The position numbers and the translations under genes are program-made. Under the pieces are notes generated by a model. The model made no database searches, was not told the DNA's origin, and worked only from the letters and a program-made list of their open reading frames with translations. 64,000 nucleotides of DNA from Candidatus Omnitrophota bacterium (GTDB lineage Bacteria; Omnitrophota; Gorgyraeia; 2-01-FULL-45-10): assembly GCA_041663425.1 (NCBI GenBank), contig JBAYMS010000001.1:8884-72883 (forward strand). The letters are read 5' to 3'. Shown in pieces: positions 1-55,716 of this stretch (position 1 is the stretch's first letter; every line of letters starts with the position of its first letter).

Positions 1-168
1 CTCTGAGCCCAACTCTTTAAGTTCGCTGCGTGGGAGGGTCTTCTCCCTCATCTGCAATATATCCACACCGCCGGAAATCGCAAGCCTGGCGATTTCTGCC
101 GCAGGCCTTCCTTTGCCGCATTCTCCACTCAATACGAGATATAAGTTATGCTCTTTTAATTTGCTCAT
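1..168 (-). CDS. thiE: Thiamine-phosphate synthase (ThiE), N-terminal part only; the gene continues beyond the window start.
   Basis: Minus-strand translation from the ATG at 168..166 gives MSKLKEHNLYLVLSGECG...AISGGVDILQMREKTL. This matches the ThiE N-terminal pattern (YLVTD..., GGVDI.QLREK). Confidence 0.5.
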   Translation of the reverse strand, partial: MSKLKEHNLYLVLSGECGKGRPAAEIARLAISGGVDILQMREKTLPRSELKELGSE

Positions 169-219
169 AGATAAAAAACCCTCGCACCATACACCAAACT
201 TATGCTGTCAAGGCTGTTC

Positions 220-1218
220 TCACAGTCTTAAGCGTTCAACATCCTCGATTGTAGCAGGTTTTACAGAGATAGTCTTTTTATCCGCCGAACCCGCCTGCCA
301 ATAATAGACGTTCAGTAATGGTTCGTTCCTGAACTTTGTATGATACGCCGCGACGCCTGCGGCCAGGGCAATGGTATTTTCATCGCCACCACCACGCAAA
401 ACCGCCAGAGGTCCCTGGTAATCTTTTAACTTAAACATGATATCTGTCTTTCCTGCCATCTCCTGAAGCGCCTCATTCTCATCCTGGTCTCTTCCCACAG
501 CCAGCTTAGCCGCTGAAGATATCCTGAAGTGACGTCCGACCGTCAGGAACTTCAGATTCTGGGGTGAGAGTTCATTGTGCTGTATAAGGTCTTTAACCCT
601 CTTCGTAAAACCGGGGTCGGTAAGAAGACACCCGCCTGCCGGGTTCGGATATTGTTTTATACCATATTGTTCGGCCAGGGTAAATTGCGGCTTACGCGAC
701 CGGCCGGATATGGCAAGCAGCCTTTCTCTGTCAACAGCACCGTCTTTTTCCGGCACTGTAGGCTCGAGCAGTTTTGCCGATAGGGGTCTGAGCAGAAAAC
801 CTTTTAAACCGGAATCTCTTGTAATGATGTTAAGCGCATCGAGCCTCTGAGACATCGGCCGCTCACCGAGCACTTCTCCCGTTATGATAAATGATGCCCC
901 AAACTCGGCCATCATTTCTTTAGCTTTTTTAAGCATAAATATTTTACAGTCGATGCACGGATTTATATTTGCACCATATCCATGGCTGGGATTTTTGAGG
1001 ACACTTATATATTCTTCGGTAATATCGACGACTCTGATCGGCACGTCGAGCGCCTTGGCAGCTTTCGTCGCGACATTCTCACCATCCTGCATGATGCAGG
1101 CGCAGAAATCTATAGAAAAATTTACCGCCTGGACCTCGACATTCTGTTCCTGCATCAGCTTTACGGCAAGAATGCTGTCAAGTCCGCCTGAAAACATAGC
1201 AATACACTTTTTGTTCAT
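220..1218 (-). CDS. PP-loop ATP pyrophosphatase, ThiI-like sulfurtransferase catalytic domain without THUMP/NFLD domains.
   Basis: N-terminal SGGLDS PP-loop. The stretches MFSGGLDSILAVKLMQEQNVEVQAVNF and IITGEVLGERPMSQRLDALN resemble my memory of the ThiI PP-loop domain. The gene lies directly upstream of thiE on the same strand. Confidence 0.5.
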   Translation of the reverse strand: MNKKCIAMFSGGLDSILAVKLMQEQNVEVQAVNFSIDFCACIMQDGENVATKAAKALDVPIRVVDITEEYISVLKNPSHGYGANINPCIDCKIFMLKKAKEMMAEFGASFIITGEVLGERPMSQRLDALNIITRDSGLKGFLLRPLSAKLLEPTVPEKDGAVDRERLLAISGRSRKPQFTLAEQYGIKQYPNPAGGCLLTDPGFTKRVKDLIQHNELSPQNLKFLTVGRHFRISSAAKLAVGRDQDENEALQEMAGKTDIMFKLKDYQGPLAVLRGGGDENTIALAAGVAAYHTKFRNEPLLNVYYWQAGSADKKTISVKPATIEDVERLRL

Positions 1219-5184: not shown

Positions 5185-5423
5185 ATTAAATAAAAAAATC
5201 CCCGCCTGTGCCGTGTGAACTTAATAATTTTGATCCCGATTCTCATCAGGTGGGAGCCCTCGAACAAACGCCAAAGCGTTTAACCAGTTAGGCCCCCGAT
5301 TCTAAATTATTGGGTCAAAATTTCTAATTCAATCACGCGCACCGCAGGGATATTTCTATTCCTAAATAAAGTATATCATACGATTACCGCAAAGGCAAAT
5401 TACGCCCGGGCGGTGCGATGGTT

Positions 5424-17396: not shown

Positions 17397-18490
17397 GTGA
17401 TTTGCATTGGAAGGACTACATATATATATTCGGCACCTATTCTAACAACGCCCGGTTTTTCCGGGTCGGTTACCTCGAAAGCGATTTTTTCAATTTCAGT
17501 ATTTTTTAAAAAGTCTATTAAGTAATTGGGATTGAACCCGACAGATATTTCCTTACCTTTATATTCTGCATCTATCTCTACCCGCGCCTCCCCTAAATAC
17601 GGTGTGCTTTTAGAGATCACCACTTTATCCTTACCGAGATCCATTTTTATTGCCGCGGAATCCTGGTTCGTAAACAAAGCTGCTCTTTTAACTGCCGATA
17701 AGAATATGTTTTTAGATAAGATTATTTTATCTTTGGCTTCTTTTGGTATAACCTGCTCGTAATTAGGGAATTCTCCCTCTATTAATCGTGATACAAGCCG
17801 CGTTTTACCCATATCAAAAAATATCTGGTTCTCGCTGAAACATATTTTAACTTCGCCGTCATCACCCAATGATTTATCAAGCTCATTAACAGCTTTTGTC
17901 GGCACTATAAATTTACGTTCAAGTGTTTTTGGTAATTGTAGCTTATCCTCAACCATTGCAAGACGTCTTCCGTCTGTAGCAACAAGTCTTATATATGTAG
18001 GTTTTATTACAAACAGAACTCCATTTAAAACATATCTGGATTCATCGTGGCTTATTGCGAATGATGTAAGCTTCATCATTGATTTTAGTTTTTTTTGCTG
18101 CAGCACCAAAGATTCTTTATCTTTAAATTCTGGCAGTTGTGGAAATTCTTCTTTTGGCAACCCCATTATTTTAAACACACTTTTCCCGCATTCAATGTTT
18201 ACGAGATTGTTTTTTTTCACCGAAACTGATATAGGTTCACCGTCAGGTAGTTCCTTAACTATATCTGAGAATTTTTTTGCAGGTATTGTTATAGCTCCGG
18301 TTATTTGTGGTTTTAGAGTTATTTTTGATGTTATTCCTATATCAAGATCTGTTGTTGTTAGTATTAAATTATCTTCCGTTGCTTCTATAAGAATGTTTGA
18401 TAGTATAGGAAGACTTGATTTTGAGCTTATAGCAGATTGAACTTCTTGGATACCTTTTAATAGCACATCTTTCGTTGTATTAAATTTCAT
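17393..18490 (-). CDS. dnaN: DNA polymerase III beta sliding clamp.
   Basis: MKFNTTKDVLLKGIQEVQSAISSKSSLPILSNILIE...; the three-domain beta clamp sits immediately downstream of dnaA. Confidence 0.9.
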
Positions 18491-18722
18491 CCCAAAAAAT
18501 CTCCCAAATTTATTCAGCCAAGGTGTCGGCTAAGTGTCGATATCCACCGATATCAACCTTCTATTACAAAACCTTATTTAATTTAAAAGTAACAGAATTA
18601 GTAGAGCCTGTTGATAAGTTAGTAACTTTTTAATATATTGCAAAATAACGACTTAAAAACAATTAAAACCAGCCGGAACCTATAAAACTTATCAACACAA
18701 CTAACAACATATACCCAAAAAG
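18491..18722. promoter_or_regulatory. AT-rich dnaA-dnaN intergenic region with DnaA-box-like 9-mers; candidate second part of oriC or dnaN promoter region.
   Basis: TTATCAACA sits on the top strand at about 18689..18697 and on the bottom strand at about 18609..18617. ATATCCACC is at about 18540. The region is highly AT-rich. Confidence 0.35.
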
Positions 18723-20096: not shown

Positions 20097-20327
20097 GGAA
20101 TGCCTTTAGTTTACGGAATTAATGTTATCCACAGCTAAACAAGCACGGTTTCAACACAAAACCGAAAGTTATGCACAAGTTGTGCACAACCGTTTTCAGC
20201 ATTGGGACACCATTATAATGAATGAAATAGGTTTTTGCAACACAAAAGATATATTTTTTGTTGACGGAATTATTTGTTATGATATAATTACGATACCGAA
20301 AGTGTCTAAAATTAGAAAGGGACAACA
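20097..20327. promoter_or_regulatory. Candidate oriC / dnaA control region with clustered DnaA boxes, plus the rpmH promoter.
   Basis: A perfect TTATCCACA at 20125..20133. TTATGCACA at 20169..20177 and TTGTGCACA at 20180..20188, all in direct orientation. Sigma70-like TTGACG-16nt-TATAAT at 20261..20288. Coding strand flips at this point. Confidence 0.5.
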
Positions 20328-20465
20328 ATGAAATACGGATTAACATGCAAATCGAACCTAAAACGTAAACGAAAACATGGTTTCAGGAAACGAATGAAAG
20401 ACCGTTGGGGCAGAGAAGTGCTTAAAAGGCGCAGACAGAAAGGCCGGCACAAGCTTACTGTATGA
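20328..20465 (+). CDS. rpmH: 50S ribosomal protein L34. Not in the ORF track because it is only 45 aa.
   Basis: Translation [45 protein letters not shown] has the L34 pattern. An ATGA overlap joins it to rnpA. Confidence 0.85.
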
Positions 20466-36151: not shown

Positions 36152-37079
36152 AAATATGAAACCTGATCTTCAAGTAAAAATAGGAACGCTGAAACTTAAA
36201 AACCCGGTCATGGTAGCGTCGGGGACATTCGGCGCTGAATACCGGGAGCTTGTCGATGTCGGTAAGCTGGGTGCGATAGTCACCAAGACCATTACGCTAA
36301 ACGGTCGCGCCGGCAATCCTGCCCCGAGAGTGGCGGAGGCATCTTCAGGTATGCTCAATTCGATAGGACTGGAAAACAAAGGGCTGGAAGATTTTATAAA
36401 CAAAAAAATACCGGCTTTTCCGGGCGGTGATACCAAACTTATTGTAAGTATTGCCGGAGACACCGAAGGTGAATTTACGCGCATGGTCGGAGAGCTCGAC
36501 AAAGTGAAGAAGGTGAGCGCTATAGAGATCAACCTCTCCTGCCCAAACGTAAAGCACGGCAGCAGGACCGGACTTACTGCCCAGGATGAGGACGCATCAT
36601 ACAGTGTAGTGCGCGCTGTGCGCAGGGCGACGGGACTGCCGATCATAGCGAAGCTTACTCCGAACGTAACCGATATAGCGAAGATAGCTGTGGCTGTGGA
36701 GAAGGCCGGTGCCGACGCTATCCTCGCAGTTAATACATTTGCCGCTATGGCTATCGATATCGAGACCCGCAGGCCTAAGCTCGGGAACGTGACGGGCGGT
36801 TTAAGCGGTCCGGCGATAAAACCTATAGCGCTGAAGATGATATGGGACATTTACAATAAAGTAGAAATCCCTATAATAGGTGTGGGCGGTATCATGAATT
36901 ATAAAGATGCCGTTGAATTTATGCTCTGCGGCGCGGCAGCGATACAGGTCGGCACGGCTACATTTGTAAATCCAAACACAGCGATCGAGATCATAAAAGG
37001 ACTTAATAAATACTGCAGTGATAAAAATATAAAAAATATGTCCGAGCTCGTCGGAAATATTAATATAGGCCGCTTGTAG
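36126..37079 (+). CDS. pyrD: Dihydroorotate dehydrogenase catalytic subunit (class 1B). The likely true start is MKPDLQVKI at about 36156.
   Basis: MVASGTFG, catalytic NLSCPN and the GVGGI motifs of PyrD. Confidence 0.85.
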   Translation: MQKKFSGNKNMKPDLQVKIGTLKLKNPVMVASGTFGAEYRELVDVGKLGAIVTKTITLNGRAGNPAPRVAEASSGMLNSIGLENKGLEDFINKKIPAFPGGDTKLIVSIAGDTEGEFTRMVGELDKVKKVSAIEINLSCPNVKHGSRTGLTAQDEDASYSVVRAVRRATGLPIIAKLTPNVTDIAKIAVAVEKAGADAILAVNTFAAMAIDIETRRPKLGNVTGGLSGPAIKPIALKMIWDIYNKVEIPIIGVGGIMNYKDAVEFMLCGAAAIQVGTATFVNPNTAIEIIKGLNKYCSDKNIKNMSELVGNINIGRL

Positions 37080-37087
37080 AACTCGCG

Positions 37088-37122
37088 GCACTTAGCCACA
37101 CCGTGGCTTAATAAACTTGGAG
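37088..37122 (+). repeat. Copy A of a conserved ~35-nt hairpin motif, immediately upstream of the pyrF start.
   Basis: gcacttagccacaccgtggcttaataaacttggag contains a perfect AGCCAC/GTGGCT stem. Related copies occur at 55046..55134. GGAG lies 5 nt upstream of the pyrF ATG. Confidence 0.4.
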
Positions 37123-37126
37123 CATT

Positions 37127-37840
37127 ATGACATCCATTAATAAATTGATAGTAGCGCTCGATGTAAATACCGAAGAAAAAGCGGTCGCCCTGGCTGAGAC
37201 GCTGAAAAATGAAGTGAGATTTCTCAAGATAGGCCTTGAGTTATTTTCAGCATGCGGGCCGAAGATAGTGGAGAGGATAAAAGAGACCGGCTGCGATGTA
37301 TTCCTCGACCTGAAATTTCATGACATTCCGACAACAGTTATGAAAGCCGCAGCAGCGGTAACTGCGCTCGAGCCTTTCATGTTCAATGTGCACGCGCTGG
37401 GCGGATATGAGATGATGAAACGGACTGCCGAGGCTGTAGCGAGCGAGACCTCAAGGCTCGAAATAGTAAAACCGAAAGTTCTGGCGGTGACGATACTTAC
37501 CAGCATGGACGAAAAGGCGATGAGAGAGATAGGGCTATCCTTAAATCCGAAAGACGCGGTTCTGAAATTGGCTGCTCTGGCGAAAAAAGCGGGCTTAGAC
37601 GGAGTGGTGGCTTCACCGTCCGAGACGAAAGCCATAAGGGAAGAGCTGGGCGAGGATTTTATTATAGTGACTCCGGGTGTGCGTCCGGAATGGGCCGCAG
37701 TAAATGATCAGAAGAGGGTCGCCACACCGAAAGCGGCAATAAAAGACGGCGCAAATTATATAGTTGTCGGCCGTCCGATAACGGAATATAAAGATCCTGC
37801 CGAAGCGGCCAGGCAGATACGAAAAGAGATGGAGATATGA
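37127..37840 (+). CDS. pyrF: Orotidine 5'-phosphate decarboxylase.
   Basis: LIVALDV...FLDLKFHDIPTT and the (I/V)VGR C-terminal motif. Confidence 0.9.
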   Translation: MTSINKLIVALDVNTEEKAVALAETLKNEVRFLKIGLELFSACGPKIVERIKETGCDVFLDLKFHDIPTTVMKAAAAVTALEPFMFNVHALGGYEMMKRTAEAVASETSRLEIVKPKVLAVTILTSMDEKAMREIGLSLNPKDAVLKLAALAKKAGLDGVVASPSETKAIREELGEDFIIVTPGVRPEWAAVNDQKRVATPKAAIKDGANYIVVGRPITEYKDPAEAARQIRKEMEI

Positions 37841-38592: not shown

Positions 38593-38859
38593 ATGCGACG
38601 AGGGACACTTAACCCTATGAGCAAGTGGACTGTTTATATTCTTAAATGTAATGACGCTTCTTTATATACCGGCATTACGACCGATCTTGAAAAACGGGTA
38701 AAAAAGCACAATGAAGGCCGTGCTGCGAAGTACACGAGAGCAAAAAGGCCTGTTTCAGTGGTTTATACTGAAGGCGCTGTTAATTCATCCTCAGCTAAAA
38801 AGAGAGAAGCCGAGATAAAAAAATTATCTCGACAAGCTAAGGTAGAGCTGATAAAATAA
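38593..38859 (+). CDS. GIY-YIG nuclease family protein (UPF0213-like). The likely start is MSKWTVYIL at about 38617.
   Basis: WTVYILKCNDASLYTGITTDLEKRVKKHNEG..AKYTRAKRPV is the GIY-YIG core. The gene is sandwiched between two tRNA genes. Confidence 0.7.
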   Translation: MRRGTLNPMSKWTVYILKCNDASLYTGITTDLEKRVKKHNEGRAAKYTRAKRPVSVVYTEGAVNSSSAKKREAEIKKLSRQAKVELIK

Positions 38860-54969: not shown

Positions 54970-55045
54970 AAATAAAATTTAAGTTCGATGAAACTTTTTT
55001 ATCCAATCTCTTGTCTAATATTCGAAGCCTACGCCAGGAGACATA

Positions 55046-55134
55046 GGCACTTAGCTAACTGTGTGGCTGAATAAACTTGGCTGATGTCAGAGACATCAGC
55101 ACTTAGTCAGCAGCGTGGCTGAATAAACTTGGAG
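55046..55134 (+). repeat. Two tandem diverged copies of the ~35-nt motif seen at 37088, separated by a perfect hairpin.
   Basis: Copy 1 is gcacttagctaactgtgtggctgaataaacttggc; copy 2 is gcacttagtcagcagcgtggctgaataaacttggag. Between them lies ctgatgtc-aga-gacatcag. GGAGG follows copy 2 just before the start codon. Confidence 0.4.
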
Positions 55135-55716
55135 GGATTGGATATGTTAAAACAAATACTAAAATGTAAGGTAACGACGGCTCTTTGTTTGGCGCTGGTT
55201 TTATGCTCTCAGGAAGCATTTGCCAGAGGGGGAGGCGGGCCCGGACCTGAGCCGCGGCATCGCGGAGATTATTATTATCGCGGAGATCAGTTGTATAGGC
55301 ATGGATGGCTAGGGTTTGATATTGCTGTTGCGGCGCTGACTATAGGCGCAATAGTAGATTCTCTTCCGCCAAGGTATAACACGGTTGTGGTCGGAGGGGT
55401 GCCGTACTACTATTATGGGAATGCCTACTATAGGCCATGTCCGGGCGGTTACGTTGTTGTTCCGCCGCCTATTGCAACTCAACCCATTATAGTAGCGTCT
55501 GAAGCGGTCCAGCCGGTTACCGTGGTTACTCCGGTGGTCGCTGCTCAAACTCAGGCCCAGACCGCTGAAACGGTGACAATCAATATCCCCAGTTCAAAAG
55601 GCGGGTATAAAGCGATATCGCTCAAAAAATCAGGCAACGGGTTTATCGGGCCTCAGGGCGAGTATTATTATGAGCATCCCACAGTTGAGCAGTTAAAAAC
55701 ATTGTATGGAAGTTAA
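55129..55716 (+). CDS. Secreted Tyr/Gly/Pro-rich hypothetical protein. The likely start is MLKQ, the ATG at about 55144.
   Basis: Signal peptide (ALCLALVLCSQEAFA) and repeats such as GDYYYRGDQLYRHGW and GVPYYYYGNAYYRPCPGGY. Confidence 0.45.
   Translation: MEGLDMLKQILKCKVTTALCLALVLCSQEAFARGGGGPGPEPRHRGDYYYRGDQLYRHGWLGFDIAVAALTIGAIVDSLPPRYNTVVVGGVPYYYYGNAYYRPCPGGYVVVPPPIATQPIIVASEAVQPVTVVTPVVAAQTQAQTAETVTINIPSSKGGYKAISLKKSGNGFIGPQGEYYYEHPTVEQLKTLYGS

Follow-up and report, generated by a model that had tools for sequence, protein, structure and literature searches.

The window analysed here, a stretch of 64,000 nucleotides of Candidatus Omnitrophota DNA, contains the gene pairs pyrD-pyrF and dnaA-dnaN and a gene for a secreted DUF6515-like protein, and directly upstream of pyrF, of dnaN, and of the secreted-protein gene it carries copies of a short non-coding sequence (Table 1). 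It was at the pyrF junction that a preliminary description of this DNA had located a 35-nt sequence, gcacttagccacaccgtggcttaataaacttggag, at 37088-37122, and both this sequence and its AGCCAC/GTGGCT stem were confirmed here; its place directly upstream of pyrF also stands, with the distance to the ATG at 37127 being 4 nt instead of the 5 nt given. Two tandem copies had been described before the secreted-protein gene, and two are indeed present there, but their extent is 55027-55131, with the next ATG at 55144. Three copies had been counted in total; the window has four, the extra one being located before dnaN on the minus strand. We also found that each copy is preceded by a hairpin that differs in sequence (GCCGC../..GCGGC, GCCUA../..UAGGC, GCUGAUGUC/GACAUCAGC, and GUUGAUAUC/GAUAUCGAC) yet is paired in every case, and therefore, the real unit is about 52 nt long (51-53 nt in the window) instead of the approximately 35 nt claimed, with the 35-nt motif being its 3' two-thirds plus GAG.

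The degenerate pattern GTGGCTNAATAAACTTGG, with up to 3 mismatches allowed, had 4 matches in the window against a shuffle mean of 0.17, with 0/100 shuffles reaching 4, and a covariance model built on the full layout recovered these four copies, and no others above the noise level, in the 64 kb. The second unit of the tandem pair is followed by GAGGG and then by the ATG of the secreted protein, and the dnaN copy, which occupies the part of the dnaA-dnaN spacer next to dnaN, has GGAG after it and then the dnaN ATG at 18490. The DnaN and PyrF encoded in the window have 100% identity to proteins from NCBI MAGs.

Table 1. Positions of the repeat units in the window, of their parts, and of neighbouring or related features.
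Feature	Position	Strand	Remarks
Single 51-nt unit between pyrD and pyrF	37069..37119	+	64 bits with the covariance model; RNAfold z -2.15; site empty in four relatives
P1 of the pyrD-pyrF unit	37069-37089	+	
CACUUAG of the pyrD-pyrF unit	37089-37095	+	
P2 of the pyrD-pyrF unit	37094-37108	+	
Tail of the pyrD-pyrF unit, UAAUAAACUUG	37109-37119	+	
TAG stop of pyrD, from the P1 loop of the inserted unit	37077..37079	+	Comparison with relatives
Rebuilt pyrF ribosome-binding site: last G of the unit and GAGCATT, then the ATG at 37127	37119..37129	+	
Unit 1 of the tandem pair, 53 nt	55027..55079	+	46 bits; P1 partly degenerate (7/9 pairs); unit 2 directly after
Unit 2 of the tandem pair, 52 nt	55080..55131	+	72 bits; perfect P1, GCUGAUGUC/GACAUCAGC
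Fourth copy, 53 nt, before dnaN	18505..18557	-	66 bits; z -2.72; P1 GUUGAUAUC/GAUAUCGAC
GIY-YIG ORF in L155	16817-17107		
GIY-YIG ORF in L156	16743-17006		
GIY-YIG ORF in L159	3923-4165		
GIY-YIG ORF in L161	3931-4176		
Possible GIY-YIG ORF in the window	38593-38859		

Besides the repeat, the dnaA-dnaN spacer (18491-18722) contains two TTATCAACA boxes (GTGTTGATAAGTTTT and ACTTATCAACAGG) that are conserved in 5/5 relatives and resemble DnaA boxes, and the genes switch strand at about 20.2-20.4 kb (region 20097-20461 of the window), which indicates that the window spans the replication origin; the dnaN copy lies at the edge of this putative oriC. A 6S RNA (Rfam RF00013, 77.5 bits) is encoded on the minus strand at 5195-5353, with a canonical TTGCCT-17-TATACT promoter upstream.

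Anatomy, folding, and distribution of the unit

From 5' to 3', the unit consists of a first hairpin, P1 (G1 to C21, with a 9-bp stem and a loop of 3-4 nt), the heptamer CACUUAG, a second hairpin, P2 (5-6 bp), and the tail U(G/U)AAUAAACUUG. P2 is the stem of the preliminary description, which had rightly noticed that this stem, the U(G/U)AAUAAA tract, and CUUGG are kept at constant spacing. The ends of the unit (GCCUCGG.. and ..AAACUUG) are not inverted repeats of each other, and the unit consensus contains no terminal inverted repeats.

The pairing of P1 was assessed in 90 distinct copies, where 89% of the cells are paired and cells changed on both sides number 74 versus 21 +/- 3.4 in shuffles, a value that 0/500 shuffles reached, and where shifting the 3' partner by 1-3 columns lowered the pairing to 24-42%. 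Compensatory changes occur at 9/9 pairs of P1, with pairs 6-8 alternating among G-C, U-A, A-U, and C-G. Pairs 4-5 form a UC/UC internal loop in about 55-60% of the copies, so that CCUCGG is present twice in direct order, and other P1 subfamilies have a perfect inverted repeat instead of the doubled CCUCGG. The P1 loop is variable (GGA, AGA, UAAA, UGA, or GCCA), and the P1 stem of the main subfamily is itself a GAGG/CCUC duplex resembling a Shine-Dalgarno (SD) and anti-SD pair. P2 is 95% paired and varies almost solely on its 5' side (C to U, A to G), and its support is the weaker because its 3' arm was fixed by the search pattern. When the numbers of G-U and A-C were compared as a test of pairing at the RNA level, P1 gave 9 versus 10, and P2 gave 38 versus 2, the latter biased by the same pattern-fixed 3' arm.

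RNAfold formed both P1 and P2 and left the tail and the SD unpaired, with z-scores of about -2.2 and -2.7 for two of the window copies; the commonest P1 variant, with the UC/UC loop, folds no better than shuffled sequence, with a z-score of -0.06 for its consensus. No part of the unit matched Rfam at the gathering threshold when the whole window was searched, and at E<=10 over 54980-55180 the sole match was a chance MAT2A_C hit (E=7.5). Known small ribozymes and the preQ1-I layout were discarded, since there is no model match and no complementarity between loop and tail, and so was P1 as an intrinsic terminator, since it lacks a U tract and the genome has ordinary U-tract terminators.

The preliminary description had held that just three copies genome-wide, with no covariation in the stem, would speak for a chance or remnant repeat; instead, an exact-pattern scan of one genome per GTDB species gave 25 loci in six Omnitrophota MAGs, and an exact-pattern scan of metagenomes gave 116 stretches. 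The remaining 11 matches of the GTDB-species scan, in Microcoleus, two Gammaproteobacteria MAGs, and one Chitinophagaceae MAG, have no P1 and score poorly, and judging from these sequences they are probably chance matches. Viral contigs contained no match to the repeat pattern. As far as sampled, the family is confined to one clade of Candidatus Omnitrophota. A fuzzy search across the collected Omnitrophota MAG and metagenome loci (given below by their L numbers) brought the total to about 190 copies (183 counted as distinct) in 139 arrays, 98 of them single, 38 double, and 3 triple, with a tandem period of always exactly 52 nt, head to tail. Units of the same array (e.g., L015 2295-2399, L057 525-629, L073 1534-1638, and L066 3592-3696) have an identical P2/core variant together with P1 stems that often belong to different subfamilies, a pattern that neither simple tandem duplication nor independent insertion explains well.

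Insertion at G^G and repair of the Shine-Dalgarno sequence

That the element recurs directly upstream of unrelated start codons, as first noticed in the window, holds for the whole family, whose downstream genes were sorted into 95 protein clusters that are unrelated and share no theme; their products include DnaN, PyrF, L21, FtsH, NusB, PanB, a ParA-like ATPase, pilin, OsmC, an LTXXQ chaperone, DUF2582, DUF2934, and small secreted proteins. Among the arrays with a called downstream gene, 115/125 are co-oriented with that gene, and of all arrays, 118/139 end 4-29 nt before a start codon, the most frequent distance from the last G being 8-11 nt. This coupling to the start codon is kept where the upstream gap exceeds 100 nt (26/33) and where the upstream gene is divergent (9/13), and therefore, it is not a by-product of tight gene spacing. 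About a third of the units sit in tight operon junctions, and where the upstream gene is co-directional its stop codon lies <=15 nt from the unit in 47/111 arrays. One copy, at L010 7463-7514 on the minus strand, is inverted relative to its neighbouring gene; in reverse complement, its P1 (..GAGGC) precedes by 4-13 nt the ATG of a gene on the opposite strand that encodes a protein with a signal peptide, as if the CCUC arm, read backwards, acted as an SD.

The sites themselves were compared with those of relatives having no unit. At pyrF, four relatives (PyrF 71-84% identical) lack it and have pyrD and pyrF overlapping by ATGA, with the junction (marked by a caret here and below) reading ..ACATAG^GAGCATTATGA in a relative versus ..ATATAG(51 nt)GAGCATTATGA in the window. 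In the alignment with L159, ...AATATTAACATAG^GAGCATTATGAC stands against ...AATATTAATATAG(GCCGC...CTTG)GAGCATTATGAC in the window, which places the 51 nt exactly between two G of the SD AGGAG, in the last codons of pyrD. As a result of the UAG in the P1 loop, PyrD ends in ..IGRL in the window versus ..IGAL in the relatives. At dnaN, five relatives (DnaN 70-90% identical) have ...TAGAAGGGAG... or similar with no unit, that is, ..GAAGGGAG.. in the relatives versus ...TAGAAG(53 nt)GGAG... in the window. Target duplication is absent in these two exact filled/empty comparisons, where the G run leaves the junction ambiguous by one or two bases. The covariance model found no copy in 105 kb of the relatives' origin regions, and the nearest relative (GCA_028715345.1, MAG STD1_87) has the repeat at other loci. 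Reciprocally, units were found elsewhere before pyrB (whose protein is 92% identical to that of the window), gyrB (two units), gyrA, and parB, where the window is empty. Orthologous arrays contain 1, 2, or 3 units and differ in unit number and P1 subtype, as at ftsH (94% identity, 2 versus 3 units) and rplU (88%), and the L150 orthologue of the secreted-protein gene at 55 kb, at 54% identity, also has one unit.

Empty sites in such close relatives mean that the unit is dispensable, and together with the reciprocal filled sites, they indicate an inserted, proliferating repeat instead of a conserved operator or promoter. The argument that conservation despite divergence implies function and not duplication is thus not supported, given that relatives carrying the repeat elsewhere are empty at dnaN and pyrF, that other genomes are filled before pyrB, gyrA, gyrB, and parB, and that orthologous arrays vary in unit number and subtype. 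From this polymorphism and from the turnover of arrays, the conservation is that of a proliferating repeat family.

Two further observations were made in these genomes. Small stand-alone GIY-YIG proteins of 80-96 aa follow gyrA or pyrE in several relatives (Table 1), and their recurrence suggests another small mobile or selfish gene family. In L005 and L017 (MAG Modern_marine_planktonic.mb.39), where the gyrase genes lie downstream of the repeat, GyrB exceeds 1011 aa and GyrA has 1806 aa, compared with 813 and 862 aa in the window, and the alignment falls into separated blocks, which suggests, from the ORFs as read, that they contain inteins.

The flanks of the units reveal the target. On the left of first units, position -1 is G in 88% and positions -2 and -3 are A in 62-66%; on the right, the flank reads G (84%), A (64%), G (75%), and G (62%), and therefore, the last G of the unit completes GGAGG. 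Both junctions are G^G in about 85% of the arrays, and removal of the unit typically restores AAG^GAGG. About 16% of the right junctions are not GG, being CTTG^A, CTTG^C, or CTTG^T before -35 boxes and tRNAs, and the only thing that these minority contexts share is that the 3' end of the unit replaces the equivalent A-rich ...G of the target.

Among the tRNA contexts, the tRNA-Gly(UCC) of L060 starts at the last G of the unit. In L048 (about 100-223, minus strand), a tRNA-Thr(CGU)-like 5' half, with acceptor, D arm, and anticodon stem and loop, starts in the same way, but its similarity to tRNA is lost beyond the anticodon loop; it is called by neither ARAGORN nor Rfam, and it may be an intron-containing or truncated tRNA. 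Other structured RNAs were seen at these loci: in L041 (426-974, minus strand), a class A RNase P RNA of 175 bits has repeat units on both sides and spans 549 nt versus the 367 positions of the model, so it carries large insertions, and in L124 (10050-10704), an Omnitrophota contig, a tRNA is followed about 370 nt on by a group I intron match (RF00028, 86 bits).

The unit enters at G^G, typically the GG of a Shine-Dalgarno sequence (AAG^GAGG), in one orientation and with neither inverted ends nor target duplication being needed, and it repairs what it interrupts. Every reading frame meets a stop codon within the unit: CACUUAG contains a UAG, the tail a UGA or UAA, and the P1 loop frequently one of UAA, UAG, and UGA; upstream ORFs that overlap the ribosome-binding site are ended by these stops. 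A long upstream ORF is terminated inside the unit in 40/137 arrays (about 29%), 20 times at the TAG of CACTTAG, 11 times in P1, and 7 times in the tail (UGA/UAA), with all three frames covered. At the other end, the A-rich 3' end ...AAUAAACUUG gives the SD back its first G and its A-rich surroundings.

We think it rather probable, without being certain, that the window copies are members of an undescribed 52-nt, non-coding, strand-specific interspersed repeat family of one Omnitrophota clade that spreads by insertion. When a unit lands beside a resident copy, in the G^G at its end, a perfect 52-nt head-to-tail array would result. The GG dinucleotide is not palindromic, and hence, a GG-directed exchange fixes the orientation; since sense-strand GG in A/T-rich intergenic DNA is mostly that of an SD, this would explain both the orientation bias and the position. 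The conserved motifs that appear unpaired would be kept as signals for stop and RBS repair and as recombination ends, and not for the binding of a regulator.

An autonomous parent element was looked for and not found: there were no half-elements flanking a gene and no solo left ends, with three solo or divergent tails only; no transposase or autonomous element with the same ends was found in 1.1-1.2 Mb of flanking DNA; no serine-recombinase motif of the [YF]xRVSSxxQ type was found among ORFs >=120 aa in about 1.2 Mb of Omnitrophota DNA, in what was a crude search of incomplete genomes; and no viral contig matched.

Transcriptional context and possible host functions

An internal promoter was among the functions first proposed for the element, and in one version the unit would be a portable alternative-sigma promoter starting transcription at its last G. 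The sequence offers an ECF-like geometry (GCACTT, 16 nt, KAATA, 5-6 nt, then G), the tRNA-Gly of L060 starts exactly at that G, and a precedent exists in Neisseria REP2, which has a promoter plus a ribosome-binding site (PMC3184786). However, in the 60 arrays with room upstream, strong canonical sigma-70 promoters cluster with the -10 ending 13-24 nt before G1 (at least 13 arrays; e.g., TTGACA-17-TATAGT in L141 and TTGACA-17-TATAAT in L055), and in about 9 arrays the terminal TTG of the unit doubles as the first half of a canonical -35 box, with TGnTAnAAT after a 17-nt spacer (L041, L077 twice, L082, L124, L152, L135, and L140, with L151 close by). The unit itself contains no sigma-70 hexamer pair (TTGACA, 16-18 nt, TATAAT), and host promoters before two tRNAs and the 6S RNA are canonical (TTGnnn-17-TAnnnT). 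With unrelated canonical promoters directly upstream of some arrays and directly downstream of others, with the location of about a third of the units in tight operon junctions, and with no role for the covariation of P1, we hold the portable promoter to be very improbable. The related sigma-54, extended -10, ECF, and T7-like readings fail on spacing or key bases, with canonical promoters flanking the unit, and the tail alone, either as a general promoter or as an RBS motif, is not enriched in the window (39 matches versus 37.8 expected).

The promoters upstream of the units are mutually non-homologous, which speaks against a longer, promoter-bearing version of the repeat and indicates that the unit entered short leaders already present in the host and would be part of the 5' UTR. 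Judging from these promoter positions and from RNAfold, the unit would be co-transcribed with host genes as leader or intercistronic RNA, with P1 (and P2) folded and the tail and SD single-stranded. At two paralogous sites in L077 (3035-3102 and 4302-4369), a full unit is immediately preceded by a solo tail (GGCTTAATAAACTTG), and one of the sites has an inverted tail (CAAGTTTATTAA) as well. Downstream of each lies a promoter of the TTGACA type, and then a leader of about 130 nt that is nearly the same at the two sites and closes with a hairpin resembling a terminator (GGGCGGGATTTTTTGTTTTT); this leader may be an unrecognised attenuator or riboswitch.

A translational operator had also been proposed, in which an RNA-binding protein would recognise CACUUAG and/or the tail beside the hairpins and co-regulate the downstream genes. 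The single-stranded motifs are, of course, nearly invariant, flanked by hairpins, and located at the ribosome-binding site, and the P1 loop is often GGA, with the SD giving a second GGA; a GGA in a hairpin loop plus a second one at the SD is a layout like that of CsrA targets. The P1 loop is not conserved, however, which led us to discard a CsrA-type operator, and for operators in general the conserved motifs are already accounted for by the three-frame stops and the SD repair, the downstream genes have no theme, and close relatives differ in their filled and empty sites. An operator is not needed, and it fits poorly with insertion polymorphism, with copies before promoters, and so outside the downstream transcript, and with copies abutting tRNA genes; we regard it as improbable.

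The 3' boundary of the unit, which is where the SD begins and, at two tRNA-like genes, where nucleotide +1 lies, could also be read as an RNA processing signal or as the cleavage site of a small self-cleaving ribozyme that punctuates polycistronic transcripts, and a tail of the ..AAACUU^G type resembles a good RNase P leader. Such a role appears extremely improbable to us, given that there is no Rfam ribozyme match even at E<=10, that on inspection the conserved single-stranded segments have no tertiary complementarity, that RNase P recognises the tRNA body and not the leader, and that insertion at a G accounts equally well for the boundary.

More serious, although still unlikely in our judgement, is that the unit is a domesticated leader or intercistronic module that is kept for the benefit of the host, however it spread, with hairpins that insulate the RBS from structure upstream, uncouple translation, and protect either the 3' end of the mRNA before them or the 5' end of the one after them, and with an A-rich tail acting as a ribosome standby site or enhancer. 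Several features agree with this: the unit abuts the SD even in long intergenic regions, RNAfold leaves tail and SD unpaired, many of the downstream genes are likely highly expressed (L21, FtsH, pilin, and small secreted proteins), units in tandem often combine identical cores with unlike P1 stems, by which misfolding would be avoided, and arrays are common to orthologues at 54-94% identity. The sharing of arrays down to 54% identity could, from the sequences compared, reflect long retention under selection, i.e., a host function. Against it are the close relatives without the unit at dnaN, pyrF, pyrB, gyrA, and gyrB, the roughly 9 arrays that lie upstream of the downstream gene's own promoter and hence outside its mRNA, and the lack of a bias toward G-U over A-C in P1. 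A combined view is conceivable, and we advance it only as a speculation with a modest chance of being right: an SD-homing mobile element, mobilised by a GG-specific recombinase, became a self-contained gene-junction cassette, in which stops in three frames, a pair of insulating hairpins, an A-rich tract for standby, and the first SD base are combined, and which these streamlined genomes recruited as a portable module to uncouple and reset translation between adjacent genes.

With the reading as an inserted repeat family, a conserved motif before unrelated Omnitrophota genes is explained for annotation as a repeat, and not as a riboswitch, operator, or promoter, and upstream proteins are seen to get altered C-termini wherever the unit provides the stop codon, as in the arrays counted above. 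Insertion into a ribosome-binding site, even within the preceding gene, with both genes left intact, is an unusually refined kind of harmless insertion. The insertion polymorphism and the variable tandem number provide strain markers for an uncultivated phylum, and if it is true that the unit modulates translation or mRNA stability, it would correspond, in nature, to the insulator parts that synthetic designs place before RBSs.

Comparison with known repeats and mobile elements

Our literature search found no paper mentioning the repeat sequence, and two Omnitrophota genome preprints do not mention such a repeat. The combination of SD insertion, three-frame stops, SD repair, and exact 52-nt arrays in Omnitrophota appears to be undescribed. 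By analogy, the closest known kinds seem to be Neisseria REP2, the mycobacterial MIRU, and IS607-type GG-targeting transposition, with Neisseria REP2/Borrelia IR and the MIRUs being the most similar among described repeats.

Of the three candidates in the preliminary description, a miniature REP-like element came nearest and pointed in the right direction, but the features of REP membership are lacking. The REP/BIME sequences associated with RAYT are likewise very short (21-65 bp), G+C-rich intergenic hairpins that are co-transcribed and can affect the stability of the neighbouring message. However, REPs have a GTAG-type tetranucleotide 5' of the hairpin, whereas the conserved Omnitrophota heptamer comes after it, and REPs lie mostly 3' of genes, in both orientations and in inverted pairs unrelated to the SD, in contrast to the co-oriented Omnitrophota arrays 5' of the gene. 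Classical MITEs (Correia, RUP, and ERIC) are also non-autonomous miniature repeats that are co-transcribed and can alter expression, but their insertions occur in both orientations and are bounded by terminal inverted repeats and a duplicated target (often TA), and the Omnitrophota unit has neither such repeats nor a duplication.

Neisseria REP2 and Borrelia IR have no terminal inverted repeats, have two 5' stem-loops, and lie immediately upstream of ORFs, bearing an RBS (PMC3184786). By this description, they share with the Omnitrophota unit the absence of terminal inverted repeats, two internal stem-loops near the 5' end, a single orientation before ORFs, and the involvement of the downstream RBS. 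REP2 is longer, however, and has its own promoter, RBS, and ATG, whereas the Omnitrophota unit has 52 nt, has promoters outside it, and supplies only the first G of the SD; it also forms tandem arrays and inserts exactly into pre-existing SDs.

The MIRUs, as far as the account of Supply 1997 is relayed in PMC3184786, are intercistronic elements of 40-100 bp with variable tandem number and with sites that are filled in some relatives and empty in others; a genome has tens of copies, which lie within operons, between genes that are transcribed together and whose ends they overlap. Similarly, 41/139 Omnitrophota arrays have 2-3 units, the number of units varies between orthologous arrays, and the arrays are co-oriented. 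In the same relayed account, MIRUs contain small reading frames that are in phase with the adjacent genes, and their filled sites show direct repeats of four nucleotides, whereas the Omnitrophota unit, with 52 nt (not a multiple of 3) and three-frame stops, ends the upstream ORF and needs no target duplication.

The insertion chemistry would be most like the GG-for-GG exchange of an IS607-family serine transposase acting in trans, and this is the weakest step of the mechanism proposed here. IS607-family elements insert exclusively at GG, preferably at (G)GG, and do so without duplicating the target site; they lack terminal inverted repeats and have GG termini and short direct repeats at their ends (PMC6188088). 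The Omnitrophota unit likewise inserts at GG without duplication, as in ..CATAG^GAGCATT.. versus ..TATAG(51 nt)GAGCATT.. at pyrF, and most of its copies have CCUCGG twice in direct order, which may be comparable to the short direct repeats at IS607 ends, although other subfamilies have a perfect inverted repeat in its place. In contrast, IS607 elements have 1.7-2.5 kb and encode TnpA, which binds those direct repeats, with or without TnpB, whereas the unit has 52 nt, is non-coding, and has no cognate transposase that we could find. A strict exchange of 2 bp of GG would not leave the right junctions that are not GG, and P1 has compensatory changes and so evolves as a hairpin, whereas the ends of IS607 are described as direct repeats. 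Given these junctions, this mode of evolution, and the missing transposase, we suggest keeping in mind that the Omnitrophota unit works like an IS607 element, instead of being one.
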